Assembly: GCA_049999805.1 (NCBI GenBank)
Contig: JBNGIO010005882.1
Span: forward strand, 126,157-190,156
Reading direction: 5' to 3'
Source of the DNA: Folioceros fuciformis
Taxonomy: Eukaryota
DNA: 64,000 nt
A program made the translations under genes and the position numbers. Within the stretch, counting starts at the first letter, position 1; the number at the start of each line of letters is the position of its first letter. Under the pieces are notes generated by a model. That model was not told where the DNA came from and searched no databases. It saw only the letters and a program-made list of their open reading frames with translations. Of this stretch, positions 2,534-48,442 are shown one piece after another.

Positions 2534-5128
2534 ATGGCGACAGCATGGCAATCGGACCCGTTGGGGATGCAACAAATTGGTGGAGTTCAAGCCCACCTCG
2601 GAAGCTTATGTTGTCAATCGCTGGGAAACAACCAAGGTTTCAGGTGCAGAGGTGTGAGGAACCCAGCACTTGCACTTGCACTCGCGAGGATATATGTGGA
2701 TGGCGATGGTATTCGCAGAGATGGTCATCGGCAGGAGCCGGAGCACTTGTGGCAGCAATTTTTCCTGGACCCCACTATGTGGTGGGACATAAGACGGGAT
2801 AAGAAGAGCTCCCATTCGCCTGACTTTCGGCATAAGGGGTCCGGCGAGGTCCTGTTGATAGGCAGCATGGTCAAGCCAGCTTGGGTTGATGAGTACCTGG
2901 TTTCTTTGGATATGCAGATAGGTCATGGTGGAAGTCCTTCCATATCCATCCCTCCAGAAAAGCCTGAACCTGGCAGAAGCGAAGGATCGGGAATCGGCGT
3001 CGTAACGGCTGAAACCGTGAGCTTGTTATGTGAGCAGGGGAAGCTTACTGAGGCAGTTGGAGCCATGGAATCTCTTGCGCAAACAGGTTCTTGCATTTCT
3101 TTGGCTGTGTTTTACACTGTGCTGAAACTGTGTACAGCTCAGAAGGATTTGGTTGTGGGGCGACGAGTTCATGATCTTGCCGTCAAACTTGGGTACCACC
3201 AGAATGCTTTCCTGGGGAACCATATCTTGCGCATGTATGCATGTGGAGGTAGGTTGGAGGAGGCCATGGATGTGTTCACCAGGGTGCGCAAACCAGATGC
3301 CTTCATGTGGTTTTCCTTGATCTCCGCATACGCTAAACATGGGAAGCCTGAAGCGGCCATACAACTGTACCACGAGATGCGGAAATCGGGAGTGAGGGCG
3401 AATGGTCATGTCTTTGTGGCTGCCGTTCAGGCTTGTGCATTCGCTGCCGACGTGAAATCAGGCAGGAAAGTCCATTGTGATGTGTTGCACAGTGGCATTC
3501 CTCCTGACATGTTTGTTGGCACCGGCCTGGTGGACATGTATGCAAAATGTGGTGAACTGGAAGATGCACGCCAGGTTTTTGACAGCATGGCAAAAAAGAG
3601 TGTGGTGACATGGACGACCTTGATCGCCGGGTATGCACAGCAAGGGCTCAGTCAAGAGGCACTTGTGTTGTATGGAGAAATGGAACGGGAGGGCCTGATA
3701 TTGGCTAACCATGTTACCTTCTCTTGCCTTCTAAAAGCTTGTGCCAGCACTCGTGCCTTGCAGAAGGGCAGGCAACTGCACTCACAGATTGTCGAAAGGG
3801 GCCTGCTGAATGAAGTTGTGCTTGGCAACTGCCTGGTGGACATGTATGCAAAATGTGGTGAACTGGAAGATGCTCGCCGGGTTTTTGAAAGCTTGCCCAC
3901 AAAGGATGTGGTGACATGGACTGCGCTGATTGCCGGGTATGCGCAGCAAGAACTCGGCCAGGAGGCGCTTGTTGTGTATGGGCAAATGGAGAAGGAGGGC
4001 CTCATTTTGGCTGATGATTTTACATTCTCTTGCCTCCTGAAGGCCTGTGCCAGCACTGGTGCCCTTCAGAAGGGGAGACACCTGCACTCACAGATAATGG
4101 AAAGAGGACTTCTGGACAACGTAGTGTTGGGCAACTCCCTGGTGGACATGTATGCAAAATGTGGTGAACTTGAAGATGCACGCGGGGTTTTTGACAGCTT
4201 GGCCACAAAGAATGTGGTGACATGGAACGCACTGATATCTGGATACGGGACGTGTGATGATGGTCACAGAGCATTGGCCTGTTTTGAGGAGATGTTAGCT
4301 GCAGGCATTCTGCCTGATGGTGTTACTTTTACTTGCCTTCTAGTAGCATGCAGTCATGCGGGACTGGTCCACGAAGGTCGCAAGCACTTTGATTCCATGG
4401 CTGACAAGTACGGCATCCAACCTGATATTGAGCACTACAATTGCATGATTGATCTTCTTGGGCGTGCAGGCCATTTAGATGAGGCAGGGAAGATGCTTTC
4501 ATCATTTCAGGGCCAAAGTAACGTTGTGGGCTTGACGTCTTTGTTGAATGCCTGCAAAAACTACGGGGATATAGAGAGGGCGATTTGGTGTTTTGAATGC
4601 ATTGTCAGGATGGACCCTCAAAGAGCGTCTGCATATGTGCTCATGGCCAATGCATACGCAGATGCAGGTATGTGGGCAGATGTAGACAGGATTGAAATAC
4701 AGAGAATCGTAGCAGGAGCTAACAAGAAGCCTGCTGTGGCGAGCATAGAGGTGAATAAGCAGGTCCATAGTTTCCTGGTGGGAGAAAAGAGGGAGGATGT
4801 TGCGTTTAAGGTAGAAAGCACGAATGAACGTCTGAAGCAGGAAGGAGGCCACGTACCTCACACGAAGTTGGTGTTGAAGCCACTGGCTGAGACGGAGAAG
4901 GAAAACATGCTTTGCGGGCATGCTGAGAAGCTAGCTCTAGCGTTTGGTCTCTTGAACACGCCAAGCGGAACTTCTCTGGTGGTAACCAAGAATCTGCGCA
5001 TGTGCAGTGACTGTCACAGTTCCACGGAGATCATGTCAAGGGTTGAAGAAAGAGACATTGTTGTGAGGGATGGGTACCGCGTGCATCGATTCGCATCTGG
5101 TTGTTGCAGTTGTAAGGGTCGACCGTGA
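2534..5128 (+). CDS. PLS-class PPR protein with E1/E2 and DYW:KP (GRP-ending) domain, candidate organellar U-to-C RNA editing factor; N-terminal OSB/PDF-like motif
   Basis: Intronless ORF. P-L-S triplets (VVTWxALIAGY / VTFSCLLKACA / LVDMYAKCGELEDAR), P2-L2-S2, E1/E2, KKPAVA in place of the PG box, HAEKLA...CSDCH zinc motif, ends CSCKGRP. Start placed at ATG 2534 (MATAWQSDP) by alignment with the paralog's MGRAWKADP; the ORF is open from 2267. Confidence 0.93.
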   Translation: MATAWQSDPLGMQQIGGVQAHLGSLCCQSLGNNQGFRCRGVRNPALALALARIYVDGDGIRRDGHRQEPEHLWQQFFLDPTMWWDIRRDKKSSHSPDFRHKGSGEVLLIGSMVKPAWVDEYLVSLDMQIGHGGSPSISIPPEKPEPGRSEGSGIGVVTAETVSLLCEQGKLTEAVGAMESLAQTGSCISLAVFYTVLKLCTAQKDLVVGRRVHDLAVKLGYHQNAFLGNHILRMYACGGRLEEAMDVFTRVRKPDAFMWFSLISAYAKHGKPEAAIQLYHEMRKSGVRANGHVFVAAVQACAFAADVKSGRKVHCDVLHSGIPPDMFVGTGLVDMYAKCGELEDARQVFDSMAKKSVVTWTTLIAGYAQQGLSQEALVLYGEMEREGLILANHVTFSCLLKACASTRALQKGRQLHSQIVERGLLNEVVLGNCLVDMYAKCGELEDARRVFESLPTKDVVTWTALIAGYAQQELGQEALVVYGQMEKEGLILADDFTFSCLLKACASTGALQKGRHLHSQIMERGLLDNVVLGNSLVDMYAKCGELEDARGVFDSLATKNVVTWNALISGYGTCDDGHRALACFEEMLAAGILPDGVTFTCLLVACSHAGLVHEGRKHFDSMADKYGIQPDIEHYNCMIDLLGRAGHLDEAGKMLSSFQGQSNVVGLTSLLNACKNYGDIERAIWCFECIVRMDPQRASAYVLMANAYADAGMWADVDRIEIQRIVAGANKKPAVASIEVNKQVHSFLVGEKREDVAFKVESTNERLKQEGGHVPHTKLVLKPLAETEKENMLCGHAEKLALAFGLLNTPSGTSLVVTKNLRMCSDCHSSTEIMSRVEERDIVVRDGYRVHRFASGCCSCKGRP

Positions 5129-5694
5129 GAGGGAAGGAAAACTAGTCGGTGCTATATCGTACGCTGTGTTTTCCTTCGAGGGCGATTGTGGTTGTTCAAA
5201 CTGAGACAGCTGAGACTGGACCAACCACTCTTCTCACCGCAGAGAACCACATGTCTTCTGTGAATCTCCTCCTGTACGTACTTCAGTTCTGAGACAGAAC
5301 TAAGTTGTCGATTTTCCCAGAAGCAGACCGTGCAGGCGTCTTGGTTAGCCAGTCCCTGGACAGGAACAGAGAAAACGTTGTGCGACGAAGAGCAGGCTCA
5401 GGCTGTGGAGACTGTGCCCAAACCTAGGACTCGTAGGGATCCTTCTTCAGTAAACCAGTCGTGTACAGATCCTCGTTCAGTAAATCTTCCGTGTAGGGAT
5501 CCTCACTTCAGTAGAGCTTCACACAACAGAAGGCCTCTGACGTGCATGAATGTATTTGGTAGCCAATTCGTCTGTCTTGGTGTCTTCTGCCATGGGTAAC
5601 GAAACTACTCATTCACTACCCTTGAGGGTAGTGCCGTGATTCCAATTACGTGGGCATCCTGCCATCGACAGCAGTTCAGTCCAGTCCTTATACG

Positions 5695-8682
5695 ATGGGC
5701 AGGGCCTGGAAAGCGGATCCGGCGTGGACGCAACAAAATGGTGGAGCTCTTGATCACCTCGTAGGCGCAGGGAGTAAAGCTCTAGGAAACAACCAAGCCT
5801 CCAAGTGCAGCCGTGTGAGGAGTCCAGCACTACCGCTTGCGATCAAATTGGTGGGTGGGGACGGAATTTGCAGCGATGGTCGTCGCAAGGAGCAGGATCT
5901 CTTGTGGCAACAATTTTTTCTGGACCCTGATATGTGGTGGGACGACAGACGAGATAAGAAGAGCTCCCGTTCGCCTGACTTCCGGCATAAGGTGTCCGGC
6001 GAGGTCCTGTGGCTAAGCAGCATGCCGAAGCCGCCTTGGGTTGATGAGCGGCTGACCTCTTTGGATATGCAGATGGGTCATGGTGCCTCTCCGTCCAAGT
6101 CGAGCTTTTCGGATGAGCATGAGGCTGGGAGGCCTGCAGGACCGGAAATGGGCGCGGTAACGGCTCAAACCGTGAGCACATTATGCCAGCGTGGGAGGCT
6201 GACTGAGGCAGTCGGAGCCTTGGAATTGCTGGCTCAGGCAGACTCTGGTATTTCTCAGTCTCTGTTTTACACTGTGCTAAAGGTGTGTGCAGCCACGAAG
6301 GATATAGTTTTGGGGCGACGAGTTCATGAGCTCGTTGTCGAACTTGGGCACGAGTCGGATGCGTACTTGGGGAACCATATCTTGCGCATGTATGCAAGTG
6401 AAGGTAGATTGCAGGAGGCGTTGGATGTGTTCACCAGGGTAGGAAAACCGAATGCCTTCATGTGGTTTTCCATAATCTCTGCACATGCCAAGCATGGCAA
6501 ACCTACTGAGGCCATACAGCTATACCATGAGATGCGTGGGTCAGGAGTGAAGGCGGACGCTCACGTCTTTGTTGCTGCTCTTCAAGCTTGTGCACTTGCC
6601 GCCGACTTGGAATCTGGCAGAGGGGTGCACTGTGATGTGTTGCGAAGTGGGATTCCTGCCAACCTATTTGTTGGAAACTGCCTGGTGGACATGTACGCGA
6701 AATGCGGCGAACTGGAAGAGGCACGCCGGGCCTTTGATAGCTTGACCTCAAAGGATGTGGTGACATGGACGGCCCTGATTGGGGGGTATGTACAGCAAGG
6801 GCTCGGCCAGGAGGCGCTTGTACTGTACGGACACATGGAGCAAGATGGCCTCATTTTGGCTGACCGTGTTACTTTCGCTTGCCTTTTGAAGGCCTGTGCA
6901 AGCACTGGTAACTTGCAGAAAGGCAAGCAGCTGCACTCACGTATTGTGGAAAGAGGACTGCTCCATGACATGCTGGTGGGCAACTGCCTGGTGGACATGT
7001 ATGCCAAATGTGGGGAACTCACAAATGCGCGCCATGTCTTTGACAGCCTGGGAAAGAAGGATGTCGTGACATGGACGTCCCTGCTTGCTGGGTATGCAGA
7101 GGAAGGGCTCGGCCAAGAGGCGCTCGTTGTGTACGAACAAATGGAGCAAGAGGGTGTGATTTTGGCCAACGATGTCACTTTCGCTTGCCTTCTCAAGGCC
7201 TGTGCAAGTACTGGTTCCTTACAGAGGGGCAGGCAGCTGCACTCACAGATCGTGGAAAGGGGACTGCTCGATAACATAATGGTTGGCACCTGCCTGGTGG
7301 ACATGTATGCAAAATGTGGAGAACTTGACGCAGCACGTGGTGTTTTTGACAGCTTGGCCGCCAAAAATGTGGCGTCATGGACGGCCCTTATAAGTGGTTA
7401 TGCAAAATGTGGCCAACTGGATGGTGCACGACAGGTGTTTGACAGCTTGGACACAAAAAGTGTGGTGACATGGAATGCCCTGATTGCTGGGTATACAGAT
7501 CAAGGGCTGGGTCAAGAGGCGCTTCTTCTGTATGGACAGATGGAGCAGGAGGGCCTCATTGTGGCTAACGATGTTACATTTGCTTGCCTTCTGAAGGCCT
7601 GTGCAGGCACGGGTGCCTTACAGAGAGGCAGACAGCTGCACTCGCAGATTGTCGACAGGGGACTGTCACGTAGCATACTTGTTGGCACCTGTCTGGTGGA
7701 CATGTATGCAAAATGCGGTGATCTGGGAACAGCCCGTCAGGTGTTTGACAGCTTGGCCACAAAGGATGTGGTGTCATGGACGACCCTGATATCTGGGTAT
7801 GGTGCGTGTGATGAGGGGCACAAGGCACTAACTTGTTTTGAGGAGATGTTGGTTAGTGGTATCCAGCCTAATGATGCTACTTTTACTTGCCTTTTGGTAG
7901 CATGTAGTCATGGAGGACTGGTGGAAGAGGGTCGTCACTACTTTAGGTGCATGGCTGAAAAGCATGGCGTCAGACCTACTACTGAGCACTACAATTGCAT
8001 GATTGATCTTCTTGGGCGTGCAGGCCATTTGGATGACGCGGAGAAGATGCTACTGTCATGTGAGGGTCAAAGTAATGTTGTGGGATTGACGTCTTTGCTG
8101 AATTCCTGTAAAAGTCACGGGGATATTGAAAGGGCGTCACGATGTTTTGAGAGGCTGGTCAGTCTGGAGCCTCAAAGTGCATCCGCATATGTGCTCATGG
8201 CCCATGCCTATGCAGACGTAGGTAGGTGGACCGACGTAGTGAGGATTGAAAAACAGAGAATGTCAGCAAGAGCTAGGAAGAAAGCTGCAGTGGCGGGTAT
8301 CGAGGTGAAGGATCAGGTACATACGTTTGTAGTGGGAGATAGGAGAGAAGATATTGCGCACAAGATAGAGAGCACGAATGCTCGTGTGAAGGACGAGGGG
8401 GGCCACGTACCCCACACAAAATTGGTGTTGAAGCCACTGGCTGAGAAGGAAAAGGAAGATGCGCTTTGTGGACATGCCGAGAAGCTAGCTCTGGCATTTG
8501 GTCTCTTGAATACGCCCAGTGGCACCCCCCTGGTGGTGACCAAGAATCTGCGAATGTGCAGTGACTGCCACAGTTCCACGGAGATCATGTCTAGGATTGA
8601 AAAGAGAAACATCGTTGTCAGGGATGGGTACCGTGTGCACCGATTTGCTAATGGTTGCTGCAGTTGCAAGGGTCGACCATGA
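5695..8682 (+). CDS. Tandem paralog PLS-class PPR DYW:KP (GRP-ending) protein with one more PLS triplet and an SS motif; N-terminal OSB/PDF-like motif
   Basis: Same architecture as 2534-5128; KKAAVA, HAEKLA, CSDCH, CSCKGRP; first in-frame ATG at 5695. Confidence 0.93.
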   Translation: MGRAWKADPAWTQQNGGALDHLVGAGSKALGNNQASKCSRVRSPALPLAIKLVGGDGICSDGRRKEQDLLWQQFFLDPDMWWDDRRDKKSSRSPDFRHKVSGEVLWLSSMPKPPWVDERLTSLDMQMGHGASPSKSSFSDEHEAGRPAGPEMGAVTAQTVSTLCQRGRLTEAVGALELLAQADSGISQSLFYTVLKVCAATKDIVLGRRVHELVVELGHESDAYLGNHILRMYASEGRLQEALDVFTRVGKPNAFMWFSIISAHAKHGKPTEAIQLYHEMRGSGVKADAHVFVAALQACALAADLESGRGVHCDVLRSGIPANLFVGNCLVDMYAKCGELEEARRAFDSLTSKDVVTWTALIGGYVQQGLGQEALVLYGHMEQDGLILADRVTFACLLKACASTGNLQKGKQLHSRIVERGLLHDMLVGNCLVDMYAKCGELTNARHVFDSLGKKDVVTWTSLLAGYAEEGLGQEALVVYEQMEQEGVILANDVTFACLLKACASTGSLQRGRQLHSQIVERGLLDNIMVGTCLVDMYAKCGELDAARGVFDSLAAKNVASWTALISGYAKCGQLDGARQVFDSLDTKSVVTWNALIAGYTDQGLGQEALLLYGQMEQEGLIVANDVTFACLLKACAGTGALQRGRQLHSQIVDRGLSRSILVGTCLVDMYAKCGDLGTARQVFDSLATKDVVSWTTLISGYGACDEGHKALTCFEEMLVSGIQPNDATFTCLLVACSHGGLVEEGRHYFRCMAEKHGVRPTTEHYNCMIDLLGRAGHLDDAEKMLLSCEGQSNVVGLTSLLNSCKSHGDIERASRCFERLVSLEPQSASAYVLMAHAYADVGRWTDVVRIEKQRMSARARKKAAVAGIEVKDQVHTFVVGDRREDIAHKIESTNARVKDEGGHVPHTKLVLKPLAEKEKEDALCGHAEKLALAFGLLNTPSGTPLVVTKNLRMCSDCHSSTEIMSRIEKRNIVVRDGYRVHRFANGCCSCKGRP

Positions 8683-18756: not shown

Positions 18757-19773
18757 TTACTGTGATCCCTCGTTTGGAAATGGGTTAGGATGACTCTTTT
18801 TTGAGTTTGGGTTAGAAACACCTATGTATTCTTCCGATGGGTTTGAGTCAGACATACCTATGTCTTCTTCCGATGTGTACTCTTCTTTTGCCGAGGGGTA
18901 TATCTTCCTCATTTGTGCTCTAAAAAGAACTAAATTATGCTCGTGATCATCTTCCGACATTGGGCCTATGACTCCTCTTCTAACAAACCATTCATGCTCC
19001 TTTATCTCTGGGATGGTGATGCGCAAATTTGGATCAGGGTGTAGCAATTTTAACAATAGATCAACACATACAGGAGATACTCTTTCGATATCGTAAAATG
19101 CATCCTCGTTAAGTTCAATGCCATAAGGACCATTTCTTGTAAAAAGTAGACTTCCACTTAGCATCTTAAACAAGGTTATTCCAGCAGCCCATACATCGCA
19201 TGGCCCTCCCCTATGGTCCACTTTTGCAAAATTCTCAGGAGCCATGTACTCGCGTGTGCCACTATTGTAGTTGAAAAGAGAATTTGGAGTACCTGAGCAG
19301 GAAAGTCCAAAATCTGCAATTTTCAAAACTCCATTTTTATCCAAAAGTAAGTTCTCCGGTTTGATATCAAAGTGAAAAATGCCATTCCGGTGACAATACT
19401 CCAATCCAGAAATGAGGTCATGAAAATAACCAGCAGCACATGTTTCAATGAAAAAATTGCTCTTTTGAAGATGGCTTTGCAATGAACCTTCTTCTGCAAG
19501 TTCTTGAACCATGTATACATCGACGCCCAAGCGATACAAGTCCAGTGATTTGATTACATTAGGATGATCCAAGTACTTTGTAACTTGGAATTCGAACTCT
19601 ATTTCCGTCATCTCGTTGTTGGCCGCAAAGTCGAAGATCTTGACGGCAACGAGCTTTTCTGAATTGATGTCTTTTCCTAGAAAAACTTTCGCAAAAGAAC
19701 CTCGCCCCAAAAAACTGTCATGTAAAACCTCATAATGGGCCAGCTTTGTGATGTTCTTTGGCAACGAAGCCAT
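18757..19773 (-). CDS. Intronless Ser/Thr protein kinase, CIPK/SnRK(CAMK)-like catalytic domain, non-RD, no NAF domain
   Basis: LGRGSFAKV, VAVK, HPNVI, HFDIKPENLLLD, IADFGLS, GTREYMAPE, DVWAAG, PDPNLRITIPEIKEHEWF; first ATG at 19773. Confidence 0.85.
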   Translation of the reverse strand: MASLPKNITKLAHYEVLHDSFLGRGSFAKVFLGKDINSEKLVAVKIFDFAANNEMTEIEFEFQVTKYLDHPNVIKSLDLYRLGVDVYMVQELAEEGSLQSHLQKSNFFIETCAAGYFHDLISGLEYCHRNGIFHFDIKPENLLLDKNGVLKIADFGLSCSGTPNSLFNYNSGTREYMAPENFAKVDHRGGPCDVWAAGITLFKMLSGSLLFTRNGPYGIELNEDAFYDIERVSPVCVDLLLKLLHPDPNLRITIPEIKEHEWFVRRGVIGPMSEDDHEHNLVLFRAQMRKIYPSAKEEYTSEEDIGMSDSNPSEEYIGVSNPNSKKSHPNPFPNEGSQ

Positions 19774-38484: not shown

Positions 38485-41252
38485 ATGGCCACATTGCTGA
38501 TGCGGACGCCAGAGCTCTCCAGCAGCGCTGACAGCCTCGGCCTCCCCAACCACGCCCGCATCCATGTTGCTGACACTACTCCGCGCTTCTCCCGCCTGCC
38601 GCAAGCTGAGGTGACGATAGCCAAGGGGCAGGGCCAGGCTCCATGTACCGGCCGCTCAAGAAGGGCCAAGAGTGTGCACAAGAAGCAGCCGCAGCGGGGA
38701 CTCGGAGTTGCGCAGCTCGAGAAGCTGCGGTTGCAGGAGCAGAGCAAGCAGGAGGCTGCATGCCTCGCCTCCTTCCACGCCTCCTTCCCGGAGCAGTGCG
38801 CGACCTCCTTGTGTTTCCAGGCGTCTGCGAACCCGTCCTGCCATGTTAAGGCTCACCTCCCGCTGCCTGTGCCTGCACTCTCCCTCGCCACCTCCAACGA
38901 CTCTCCGCTCACCTCCGACACCGATGCCACTGGGTGCATTGTGTCCCTCGGGCCCTCGCAATCTTTTCCGGGATCCAGCTCCCGGCAGCTGAAGCTCGGA
39001 CGGCCGCACGATGAGGAGGCTGCGATGCCGTCACTGGAGCTGCGGAGTTCCGGCACGCCGGTGGTCGCATTCTGCCTGGAGAAGGTGGACTCGGCTGGAG
39101 CTGGGGCCGGGGTGGAGGCGGAGAGCAGAGTTGGAACTCTGCTCAGGGTTTGCCCGCCTAATGCTGCGTCCCTGTTCCCGAATGTATTTGCTACGCAAGT
39201 TTCAGGCGTGGATGCTCACGTCAGGTCAGAGGAGGAGCAGGAGGAGGCCAGGCGTCAGGCCAAGAGGGTGTATGGGGAGAGAGGGAAAGAGGTTCCTCGC
39301 ATCAACGGGAAGGATCCGCTTACCTTCATGGATCTTGATTATTATGACTCGGACGCCTCTCATCTGCAGAGGAGCCACATGCTAGAGGAGCTCTCTTCTT
39401 TCCAAAGCTTTTCAAGCAATCAAGTCTGGCCTCCCGGGGAAAAGGCAAGCGTCTGGACCTGGCGTCTAGTAGGGCCTCCCCATTTTCCTGTCTGTTTGGG
39501 CTCTACACTGACTGACCTAGGCGTGGAACAGACCGGTGTAGTGCAGTGTGGTGGTTGTCATGTTTCAATCGCGCTGCTTATGTTGCCGGCACAAATGAGC
39601 CTTCATCTCTCCATTTCAATTTGTTTGACAATGCAGATTCTTGGAAGGAAACGACCTTGGGGTGCTGTGCAAGACAGACTCAAGTCTCTGAGCAGTTCCA
39701 ATGGACTGGATCTCAACTCCGAAAGTTGTAAGCGAGACGTGCTGCAGACGGAGCAGCACAGCACCGATGCTGCTGCCCACGTGGCAGACAACCAGGCGGG
39801 AGTTCATTACACAACTGGAGCTGTGAGGTACTTCTACGTCACTGCTTCATACTGTTGCCTTGTGCTGGTTACAGGGACCTTCCTCGCAGATGGCCTTACC
39901 ACATTTTTGAAGGCAAGTTTGCTGAACTGTAGACCTGGCTGGCATTCCAGAACGGCCCTGGGCCAGACATCATGTCTACCTACCATTGGTAAGGGAAAGC
40001 AGGGTTGCCTAACCTCTCAAAGGCAGGACAGTGGGAGCCCTTCCTCTGTTAGCGGATGTTTCTCAGAGATGAGTGTCTTTCCTGTCCCGGCCCTGCATTC
40101 GGAATTGTGTACAGTGAAGGACAGTTGCTCAAGCGCATCTCCGAATAGTACATACTCTGTCGCTGGGCGGATTGGAGGGTTGGAGATCACGGATGTCTCA
40201 GATGATGTTGGCCTAAGTCCCCCAGTATCCGACAACGATTTCTTGAGTCTGGGGCTCTCAAGCTGTGCATACCTTCCTGCAGAGCACTACGACAACAAAG
40301 AGAGTATGCGGAGTAGTGATGGGAATCCACAACGACAGGATAGCTTGAAGCACAGCATGTCCAGTACCTGTGTCAATGTTCAACCATGTTCTGGCAAAGT
40401 ACAGCTATCAGTTAATTACAAGGTACTTCCCCGTAACTTACCATGGAAGTCCTAGTCCTCTGTTTGGTAAGTAGAGCATGGAAGTGGGATCCGGAAAACG
40501 TAAAGGCTTGCTTTGCGTGTGCTGCACCTCAGGGGCAGTTTGCAGCAGGGACAGTCCACGTGACCCAGATGAGGTTGCTCTCTTTCGTTATGTCACACAG
40601 CAGATCTTACGTTGTCGGGGAGATTTCAGTTCTTGCTGAGCTGTAGTGGGCATGCTTTCAGAAGCACTCGGGAGTCAGTGTCTGGATACCAGCCCAAGGG
40701 GAAGTGAAACTATCTTGGTACATTTTTTTCCCACTTTTTGATCCACTTTGAAAGTCTAGGTGTGTCGAAGAGAGAACCCATATCCTTGTCCCGAAGTACT
40801 TCAGGCGTGACGAACGGGGAAGAGGGGTGTGGGGAGTTGAGGAGGGGACAAGAAGAGTGTAGACAAATGCTCGATGGAACCATGGCCCACCTTGCGTGTT
40901 GTCACCTGGTGCACATCTGAGAATGCCATGCCCTGCTTGGTATGTTCCCATGGTGTCCACGATGTAGGAACGCTGGCTTGGAACTTGTGCTGACGCTCAA
41001 AGATTTGTGTCACAGGAACAAAATTGTGAGGTGGCTGCGGACAAAAAGAGAGGCACTTTTGACCCTGGCCGAGAGAGGAATGTGCTCACCTCAACTGACT
41101 GGACAGGCCTGCCTTGCACACCATCGGAAGTTTACAACAAGACTTTTTTCTCGTCATATGGTAGAGGCCTCGAAGACGACCATGAGCTGGTGCATTATCT
41201 AGAGAAGTGCTCCGAGGACAGCTTGGATTTGAGTCTGAAGTTAGCCTTGTGA
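38485..41252 (+). CDS. SPOROCYTELESS/NOZZLE-SPEAR/TIE family EAR-motif transcriptional repressor (multi-exon)
   Basis: N-terminal KKQPQRGLGVAQLEKLRLQEQ (SPL/SPEAR motif), RKRP basic stretch, C-terminal LDLSLKLAL* EAR motif in the last exon; internal exon structure uncertain. Confidence 0.8.
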
Positions 41253-46400: not shown

Positions 46401-48442
46401 ATGGCATGGCGTTCTCCCCGTGCAGGCTTCTTTTCGAGAGTGTCCCGACGAGCCTTCGCCTTTGGATCACGTCTGGATCAGGCGCAGACACCTGCTGCAG
46501 GGCCTTTGTATCTCAATAGCGGAAACGCATCACGCCAATCTCGCGTCCTTTCCCGCTTCGTCTTCCTGTGGCGGGCCAACTCCTCCGCAGCGCCAGCCAC
46601 CTCGGCCCCCGCCCCTGCTTCCGGTGCCGCGCACATCAGGAGCCTGCAGGAGGCGGAGATCCTGCAAAATTCTGTCTCCTCTGCGGTCACGGAGAGCCAG
46701 GCTGACATTCTGGAAACGCACAACGGGCAGCTGCTTTACGCGGGGTTCACCTCGGGTGAGCTGCTTGCCACTCTGTTCAATCTCAATCTGGTGGCGTCGG
46801 AGCCGCTGGTTGATCTCAGCATCAAGCTTCTCAAGTCCCGCCTGTCTGAGGCGTTTCCGTTGAGGAACGTGCTCCATTTCGTTGTCAAGAGGACTGCGTA
46901 TCTCCACTTCTGTGCAGGGGAGGATGTGGTGGAAGCCTCCGCCAAGCTGAAGCGGATGTGGGAGCTCGGGCTGAGAGGGATACTGGACTACAGCCTGGAG
47001 GACGCAGAAGACAACCAGGCTTGCCAACGCAATCTTACCGGCTTTCTGGAAACCGTATCTCAGATCCGCGGATTGCCACCCGGTTCGGTAAGGCATCTCA
47101 CCTTCGCGTGTGTGCCTGCGGATGAAATCGTGACAACAGTGGCTTCTCATTCTCTCGCACGCTCATCCGTGTCTGCAGCTTGTCAGACTTGTCACTCGTT
47201 TGATGACGTTGAGAGGAACTTGAGTCATTAACAGGTCCGTCTAGCTGGTTCGCCACTCTGTCACACCTGTCCGCTTGATGCTCAACTTTGGTCTGAGTCT
47301 GTTGGATTTTTTTTTTTTTGGGCGGTCATGGCAGGTGAGCTCGGCTTGTGTCAAAGTTACTGCCATTGCACCGATACCTCTGTTGGAGAGAGTGAGTGAC
47401 CTGCTTAGGTGGCAGCATGTCGACAAGAATTTTCAGCTGCCGTGGAAAGGGTCTGGATTGCCTTTGCTAGCGCCAAACAGCCCCACCTTCCACGTCCAAA
47501 AGGCTCCTGAGCCCCTTACCGCTCAAGAGGAGCAAGACTTGTCTGCAGCTGAGAAGAGGTTGTGGAGGCTGTGTGAGGCTTGCAAGGAGGTGGGACTCCC
47601 TCTGCTGGTGGATGCAGAATATACTTCTGTGCAACCTGCCATAGACCACCTTATATTTGGTGCGGCGATGGAATTCAATACATCTGGCCCTCCTCTGGTA
47701 TACGTTACAATACAAGCGTATCTCAAGGACGCGCTTCCACGTCTCTCTCTGGTCTTTACTGCAGCCTCCGAGAGAGGAGTGTCCCTTGGTGTCAAGCTTG
47801 TGAGAGGAGCTTATCTTACTAGGGAGAACTCTCTGGCTGCCTCGCTCAACGCTGAATCTCCTATTCATTCGAGCATTGAGGAAACACACCGTTGCTACGA
47901 CGCATGTGCTGCTTTTCTGCTGGAACAAGCATCAGCAGGGGAGACTCATGTTGTTCTAGCTACGCACAATATTGATTCTGGTGAGCAAGGACAGATCCTG
48001 ATAGGGATCAGCACTTTCCTATTTTGCCCTATGAATGTTTTTCTATTTAATCTGTTGATAATAAGAAGTGCAATTTCAGGCAAGGCTGCTGCACTCAAGG
48101 CTGAATCGCTTGGACTAGCGAGAGGGGATCGCAGACTACAGTTTGCCCAGCTTAAGGGCATGGCAGATGGCTTATCACTGGCCCTGATAGCTGCAGGGTT
48201 CCAAGTGAGCAAGTACCTGCCATTCGGACCAGTTGCTCAAGTTCTGCCCTACTTGATTAGGAGAGCGGAAGAAAATCGTGGACTCCTTGGAAATACTCGT
48301 GGAGAGCGGGAGCAACTGAGGTGAGATTACTTTTGACACTGATTTGCACAATGCTGATTCGTGCTTCGCAAGATGACGCGATTTACGTGTCTGAAGGGAG
48401 GAGCTGAAGCGCCGCTTCTACGCTGCACTCGGTTTTAAGTGA
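46401..48442 (+). CDS. ProDH: Proline dehydrogenase (mitochondrial), 4 exons
   Basis: HFCAGED, GILDYSLED, VKVTAI, LLVDAEYTSVQPAID, TIQAYLKDA, GVKLVRGAY, LATHN, FAQLKGMAD, SKYLPFGPV..PYLIRRAEENRG; introns approx. 47088-47334, 47981-48079, 48321-48396. Confidence 0.93.

Follow-up and report, generated by a model that had tools for sequence, protein, structure and literature searches.

A PPR editing factor is usually pictured with three parts, its PPR array lying between a targeting peptide and a catalytic tail. Does this view cover two neighbouring genes in a 64,000-nucleotide stretch of Folioceros fuciformis DNA (contig JBNGIO010005882.1, positions 126,157 to 190,156 of the forward strand; hereafter the window), where a segment resembling the PDF motif of OSB proteins (organellar binders of single-stranded DNA) precedes the PPR array, and what might such a segment do there? 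Both genes (gene 1, protein P0001; gene 2, protein P0002) almost certainly encode proteins of five parts, namely an N-terminus, a PDF domain, a linker, a PLS-type PPR array with E motif, and a DYW:KP domain of the GRP subgroup (Table 1). The best overall explanation, to which we assign a probability of about one half, is a PDF-PPR-DYW:KP protein in which the PDF serves as an accessory single-strand binder.

The PDF motifs of genes 1 and 2

The PDF motif is a module of ~50 amino acids named after its conserved Pro-Asp-Phe (PMC6963530). In OSB proteins an OB-like fold is followed by at least one such module, often several (PMC6963530, PMC6451138, PMC4166229, PMC13393729), and binding is reported to reside in the PDF, not the OB fold, the PDF motif of AtOSB1 being sufficient for binding of single-stranded DNA (ssDNA) (PMC6963530, PMC6451138, PMC4166229). 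The peptide from which the original prediction started, LWQQFFLDPTMWWDIRRDKKSSHSPDFRHKGSGEVLLIGSMVKPAWVDEYL, was recovered exactly as quoted at 2747-2899 (+), corresponding to residues 72-122 of P0001; of the interval given for it, 2747-2912, the start is correct and the end lies 13 bases beyond the end of the peptide at 2899. Its reading frame continues downstream, on the + strand, into the PPR-E-DYW part of P0001 without a single stop codon. A second copy, 80% identical over 55 amino acids (tblastn E 2.8e-26), lies at 5902-6054 in gene 2, and tblastn revealed no third copy in the window (next matches at E of at least 0.23). Both genes have SPDFRHK, and with it the Pro-Asp-Phe signature, within a 54-amino-acid block.

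A hidden Markov model (HMM) built from 81 PDF motifs of 28 proteins named OSB1, OSB2 or OSB3, with the window's own sequence excluded, was compared with the window's 1286 six-frame open reading frames (ORFs) of at least 30 amino acids. The only matches of this OSB-only HMM up to E = 10 were gene 2, with E 6.2e-17, and gene 1, with E 1.3e-15. Chance resemblance to the PDF was considered and ruled out, the OSB-only HMM matching just these two genes in the window. In the reverse direction, a profile of the two window motifs (A1), searched with HMMER against 1.84 billion representative proteins, matched 646 proteins at a cutoff of E<=1e-3, of which 202 pass E<=1e-10 and 18 pass E<=1e-30. The best 150 are mostly 200-600 amino acids long, with one to six PDF copies toward the C-terminus, and among the proteins matched is P0031, ‘protein OSB1, mitochondrial-like [Populus nigra]’ (E 1.7e-26; two C-terminal copies). 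A profile of 18 motifs (A2) matched 1009 proteins, and among the best 120 of these the labels OSB1, OSB2 and OSB3 are frequent, PF00436 (OB/SSB-like) being present in some of the proteins so labelled. Word-indexed single-sequence protein searches passed none of 14 candidates for the gene 2 motif and none of 12 for the full protein (region 55-130); relatives were recovered only by the exhaustive HMMER search and the profile search. The near-invariant core of the motif (W, P, W, D, R, K, P-D-F, L-W, P, W) is complete in gene 2, while gene 1 keeps it except for Trp to Leu at the L-W position, making gene 2 the better exemplar. At the level of sequence, homology of the two motifs to the PDF motifs of OSB proteins is established. 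Since a Pfam scan of P0001 and P0002 gave no PF00436 and the PDF is N-terminal, both are best described as PDF carriers, not OSB proteins.

AlphaFold2 (AF2), supplied with the A2 alignment, folded the 54-amino-acid block of gene 1 as a small helix, three short strands and a helix, with a predicted local distance difference test score (pLDDT) of 93.4 and a predicted template modelling score (pTM) of 0.73. When residues 1-289 were modelled together, the PDF scored ~90 and the PPR helices, from residue 159 on, >93, with values <50 for residues 1-65, 131-145 and 147-151; the pTM of 0.50 means that the orientation of the PDF relative to the PPR array is not fixed. Conservation between the paralogues peaks locally at the same segment, the PDF being 80% identical (dN, non-synonymous divergence, 0.13) compared with 50% for residues 1-60 and 53% for the linker (residues 123-160; dN of these flanks 0.31-0.34), 73% for the PPR array and 84% for the DYW domain. 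The PDF is thus a conserved island and, in the model, an independent domain on a flexible tether of ~30 amino acids, and residues 1-65 are probably an organelle presequence. Among solved structures, the best match to the 54-residue model had E 2.8 with Foldseek and Z 2.6 with VIA-align (48,161 chains), and a PDB sequence profile search with the motif gave no match at E<=1; none of these is a convincing match, nor are they evidence for a novel fold or for a particular ligand. The profile match to OSB proteins, the confident independent fold and the conservation peak together bear out the predicted fusion of an OSB-type PDF to a PLS-PPR-DYW:KP protein.

The remainder of each protein is readily recognised. 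Pfam matches in P0001 are PPR (2.8e-72), PPR_2 (2.4e-71), E_motif (5.4e-11) and DYW_deaminase (1.6e-33; residues 772-862), with no significant Pfam match in the first 155 residues, and those in P0002 are PPR (2e-89), E_motif (3.3e-10) and DYW_deaminase (7.6e-33; residues 903-993); in pairwise alignment the PPR array of gene 2 is 131 amino acids longer. Both proteins contain HAEKLA...CSDCH, with the HxE and CxxC zinc ligands, and end in GRP (...CSCKGRP in P0001). In the region that we take to be the ‘KP’ box, gene 1 reads KKPAVASIEV and gene 2 KKAAVAGIEV, with Pro replaced by Ala; the relative P0094 has KKPAV..IEV, like gene 1. Published criteria for DYW:KP domains include Ser to Ala in HSE, and the hornwort KP proteins form the DRH and GRP subgroups (available text of PMC9478123). 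Given HAE, the terminal GRP and the altered PG box, genes 1 and 2 are assigned as putative GRP-type DYW:KP editors, and their organism is accordingly a probable hornwort. Designer GRP proteins are reported to edit U-to-C in E. coli; synthetic U-to-C editors that follow the usual three-part plan are only moderately efficient there, at 22-50% (PMC9478123).

The frame of gene 1 is open from 2258 and contains other in-frame ATGs at 2267, 2318 and 2396. ATG 2534 was taken as the start because MATAW aligns there with MGRAW, the earliest possible start of gene 2, whose ORF opens just 21 codons 5′ of its ATG. The upstream extension of the gene 1 ORF (2258-2533) is rich in Cys, and gene 2 lacks an equivalent. 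Just 5′ of gene 1, an ORF at 1487-1813 contains two direct copies of a ~35-amino-acid unit, AHKYSPLYRMTMFSSPCS.DYKAIRQGLVQSHQR, a sign of tandem repetition in the DNA.

Table 1 Features of the two PDF-PPR genes, in window positions
Feature	Position	Strand	Basis
Gene 1 (P0001, 864 aa; PDF-PPR-E-DYW:KP(GRP))	2534..5128	+	intronless coding sequence
Disordered N-terminus of gene 1 (predicted), residues 1-65	2534..2728	+	AF2 pLDDT <50; poorly conserved
PDF domain of gene 1, residues 70-123	2741..2902	+	OSB-only HMM; AF2
PDF-PPR linker of gene 1, residues 124-158	2903..3007	+	AF2 pLDDT <50 at 131-145, 147-151
PLS-type PPR array and E motif of gene 1	3008..4753	+	Pfam PPR, PPR_2
E_motif of gene 1, residues 677-739	4562-4750	+	Pfam E_motif 5.4e-11
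DYW domain of gene 1, KP type, GRP subgroup	4847..5119	+	Pfam DYW_deaminase; KKPAVASIEV, HAEKLA, CSDCH, terminal GRP
Gene 2 (P0002, 995 aa), architecture as in gene 1	5695..8682	+	Pfam, OSB-only HMM
PDF domain of gene 2, residues 68-121	5896..6057	+	OSB-only HMM E 6.2e-17; keeps Trp (GEVLWLS)
DYW:KP(GRP) domain of gene 2	8401..8673	+	Pfam DYW_deaminase; KKAAVAGIEV

The PDF-coding segments 5897-6137 and 2764-3004 are matched at 85% or more by many contigs, which come from a DNA run of the organism itself and from runs of two others. At position 6017 the other letter, A, occurs in 14 contigs of run X1, 14 of X3, 12 of X8 and 12 of X17, counts that are not a copy number. These alignments hint at a sizeable family of PDF-bearing paralogues. 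Elsewhere in the window, Pfam identified a protein kinase domain (18757-19773, -; 3.3e-60) and a proline dehydrogenase (47278-48324, +; 3.6e-57), and a 656-amino-acid ORF (38485-40455, +) has no Pfam match.

PDF-PPR proteins in other plants

A set of 282 proteins, comprising the best matches of the A1 and A2 searches plus cluster members, was examined for the co-occurrence of PDF and PPR. Both were found in 51, the window's two included (49 further), and in 50 of the 51 every PDF is N-terminal to the PPR match. The exception to this order is P0221 (Diphasiastrum complanatum, 1362 aa), with PDF pairs at residues 98-195 and 636-733, which may represent two tandem PDF-PPR genes merged in one model, echoing the tandem pair in the window. 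Named sources are Diphasiastrum complanatum (many), Selaginella moellendorffii (XP_024517303.1), Adiantum capillus-veneris and Ceratopteris richardii, and in transcript-derived ORFs of Pteridium aquilinum, too, PDF and PPR share a single reading frame. No seed-plant, moss or liverwort PDF-PPR protein was found among the best 150 matches of A1 and the best 120 of A2. By sequence, the PDF-PPR protein is a recurrent, unannotated family in public fern and lycophyte proteomes. It is unannotated because the PDF domain is without a Pfam model, and Pfam-based domain censuses overlook it.

The C-terminal parts of these proteins differ. Thirteen of the best 150 A1 matches resemble P0001 in the PPR region too, and two of these 13 match its DYW domain as well; Pfam, run on nine of the 13, gave PPR only in five, PPR and E in two, and PPR, E and DYW in two. 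Canonical ...DYW ends were identified in Diphasiastrum P0124, P0213, P0240 and P0281, with HSE also in P0124, and P0094 is the only relative with a GRP ending as in the window genes. The combination of PDF with DYW:KP proposed originally is therefore real, but it is neither specific to KP domains nor the single arrangement, canonical DYW, E-type and DYW-less proteins having a PDF too. As several PPR classes carry it, the fusion is not tied to U-to-C chemistry.

PDF-PPR proteins have one to four PDF copies, the last of which ends as far in as residue 339, and such PDFs are therefore not presequence. This bears on whether the PDF is part of the working protein at all. It might be lost when the targeting peptide is cleaved off, or lie 5′ of the true start of translation or transcription, and the motif is indeed just ~70 residues from the first conserved ATG. 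Against this, it is a folded, conserved domain that follows a 65-residue disordered stretch, the next in-frame Met lies inside the motif (M82) or after it, and relatives with three or four PDFs have them up to residue 339; loss of the PDF from the mature protein is very improbable.

A FastTree phylogeny of 54 columns was built from the 75 PPR-linked motifs and 120 others, a random sample of 431. The PPR label changes six times on this tree compared with ~60 in shuffles (0/500 shuffles as low), although only 9/191 branches are well supported and near-copies inflate the clustering.

PDF motifs in other settings were also encountered. Arrays of eight copies are present in Effrenium voratum (a dinoflagellate; P0011), five in a metagenome-assembled genome of Sanguina aurantia (a snow alga; P0005) and 13 in Kingdonia uniflora (P0003); those outside land plants might stem from transfer or contamination, or be of older origin. 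Three PDFs each are present in P0037 (Coptis chinensis, 1526 aa) and P0054 (Striga hermonthica, 1063 aa), which have the source names ‘kinesin motor domain-containing’ and ‘Interactor of constitutive active ROPs 2’, and are other fusions or merged models.

Possible roles of the PDF on a PPR editor

On its RNA target, a PPR array lies with the N-terminal repeats at the 5′ side, so that N-to-C corresponds to 5′-to-3′. Owing to this orientation, a PDF on a tether of ~30 amino acids would reach RNA 5′ of the PPR footprint. The PDF would be kept on the mature protein after organelle import, as suggested by its position after the 65-residue disordered stretch and by relatives' copies far from the N-terminus, and as a sequence-independent single-strand binder it would add affinity to the sequence-specific PPR array. 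It may keep the RNA 5′ of the footprint in single-stranded form and delay dissociation, with conversion of U to C by the C-terminal DYW:KP domain proceeding downstream in the meantime. This role as an RNA clamp or melting module is put forward tentatively, at slightly less than even odds.

Several points weigh against such a role. Trp occupies the L-W position in 95% of 506 distinct PDF instances, and gene 1 is the sole instance with Leu. The gene 1 motif has a net charge of -1 (median +1). Searches for data on PDF-PPR proteins found none on binding, editing, localisation or N-terminal processing, and recombinant AtOSB1 and AtOSB2 are reported to prefer ssDNA over double-stranded DNA or RNA (PMC4166229). 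Transcription of genes 1 and 2 is unsupported by the runs examined, none of the sources listed for the stretch being recorded as RNA: a 530-base contig of run X3, guessed to be RNA, lies on 2328-2855 with 0 differences and spans ATG 2534 and most of the motif, but X3 also covers intergenic 5102-5928 much like DNA run X1 and so may be DNA; no weight is given to its lack of cover at 1800-2281, where X1 has cover.

The Leu and the net charge of the gene 1 motif, together with residues that are rare (<=0.8%) at four more columns (H54, M84, V85, Y95), would also fit a decaying remnant, in which the PDF lost its function through the Trp-to-Leu change and is a mere spacer, the fusion being ancestral and working in relatives and perhaps in gene 2. 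Decay is improbable, as gene 1 retains every other near-invariant position (W, P, W, D, R, K, P-D-F, L, P, W), the predicted fold scores a pLDDT of 93 and dN across the motif does not reach half the value of its flanks.

OSB1 and OSB2 are reported to prefer ssDNA to RNA, with the PDF as the ssDNA-binding part (PMC4166229, PMC6963530, PMC6451138). This speaks for a tether to the nucleoid, in which the PDF would retain this preference, anchor the editor to organelle ssDNA (transcription bubbles, R-loops, replication or recombination intermediates) and so place editing on nascent transcripts. The 431 non-PPR and the 75 PPR-linked instances agree in which core positions are near-invariant, and Diphasiastrum proteins have multiple PDFs, like OSB3, whose extra copies are reported to go with longer ssDNA substrates (PMC6451138). 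On the other hand, the single strand physically closest to the PDF is the RNA to which the PPR array is bound, and the separate clustering of PPR-linked PDFs on the tree leaves room for a shift in preference. We regard anchoring to ssDNA, the strongest of the alternatives, as possible but doubtful.

Binding to protein instead of nucleic acid was also considered, with the PDF oligomerising or docking to OSBs, other PDF-PPRs or an editosome partner. AtOSB2 is described as a tetramer (PMC6963530), the PDF has many conserved aromatic residues, and seed-plant editors depend on helper proteins, but the published role of the PDF is nucleic-acid binding and a protein-protein module is, if anything, slightly less probable than decay.

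It is conceivable, though distinctly speculative, that the PDF is a lineage-wide accessory domain, so far unrecognised, of PPR proteins in heavily editing seed-free plants (hornworts, lycophytes, ferns), coupling their RNA processing to ssDNA of the transcribing nucleoid or replacing in cis the helper proteins on which seed-plant editors depend. Were this true, native U-to-C editors would be efficient only with their PDF, and adding a PDF could improve synthetic DYW:KP editors. The PDF in any case offers a concrete accessory element whose contribution to RNA affinity, or to localisation at the nucleoid, can be put to the test, and use of the module now extends beyond genome maintenance.

Comparison with known systems

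The impression that this architecture was uncharacterised agrees with the literature searched. No published description of a PDF-PPR fusion was found in full-text searches, which did not cover supplements, Zaegel 2006 or Gutmann 2020. ‘PDF’ and ‘OSB’ occur zero times in the main text of a 2026 kingdom-wide survey of editing-factor fusions (PMC13386178) and of a 2024 PPR review, and a 2026 survey of the OSB family, which requires both the OB-like fold and the PDF, never mentions PPR in its available text (PMC13393729).

The window motifs share the conserved columns of the PDF motifs of Arabidopsis OSB1-4 and their orthologues (W..F..P..WWD.R..K....PDF.HK....LW....P.WV), with a profile match both ways. 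The arrangement differs: OSBs have one to five PDFs, C-terminal and behind the OB-like fold, whereas genes 1 and 2 have one N-terminal PDF followed by PPR and a deaminase-fold domain. With the hornwort PPR-DYW:KP editors of the GRP subgroup, genes 1 and 2 have in common the PLS-PPR array, E motif, HAE...CxxC and terminal GRP; in the available text of PMC9478123 those editors start with the PLS array and no N-terminal PDF is mentioned, while genes 1 and 2 carry one. The lycophyte and fern PDF-PPR proteins (among them Diphasiastrum KAJ7558666.1, Selaginella XP_024517303.1, Adiantum KAI5076972.1 and Ceratopteris KAH7429238.1) have the same domain order, with PDFs 39-54% identical to that of gene 1, but have one to four PDFs and C-termini that are P-type or DYW-less, E-type or canonical DYW, not KP/GRP. 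Finally, RRM-PPR fusions (counted in PMC13386178, as far as its available text goes), PPR-SMR proteins and the trans-acting MORF proteins follow a shared logic, a specific PPR array with a generic helper, although the domains involved are unrelated to the PDF.

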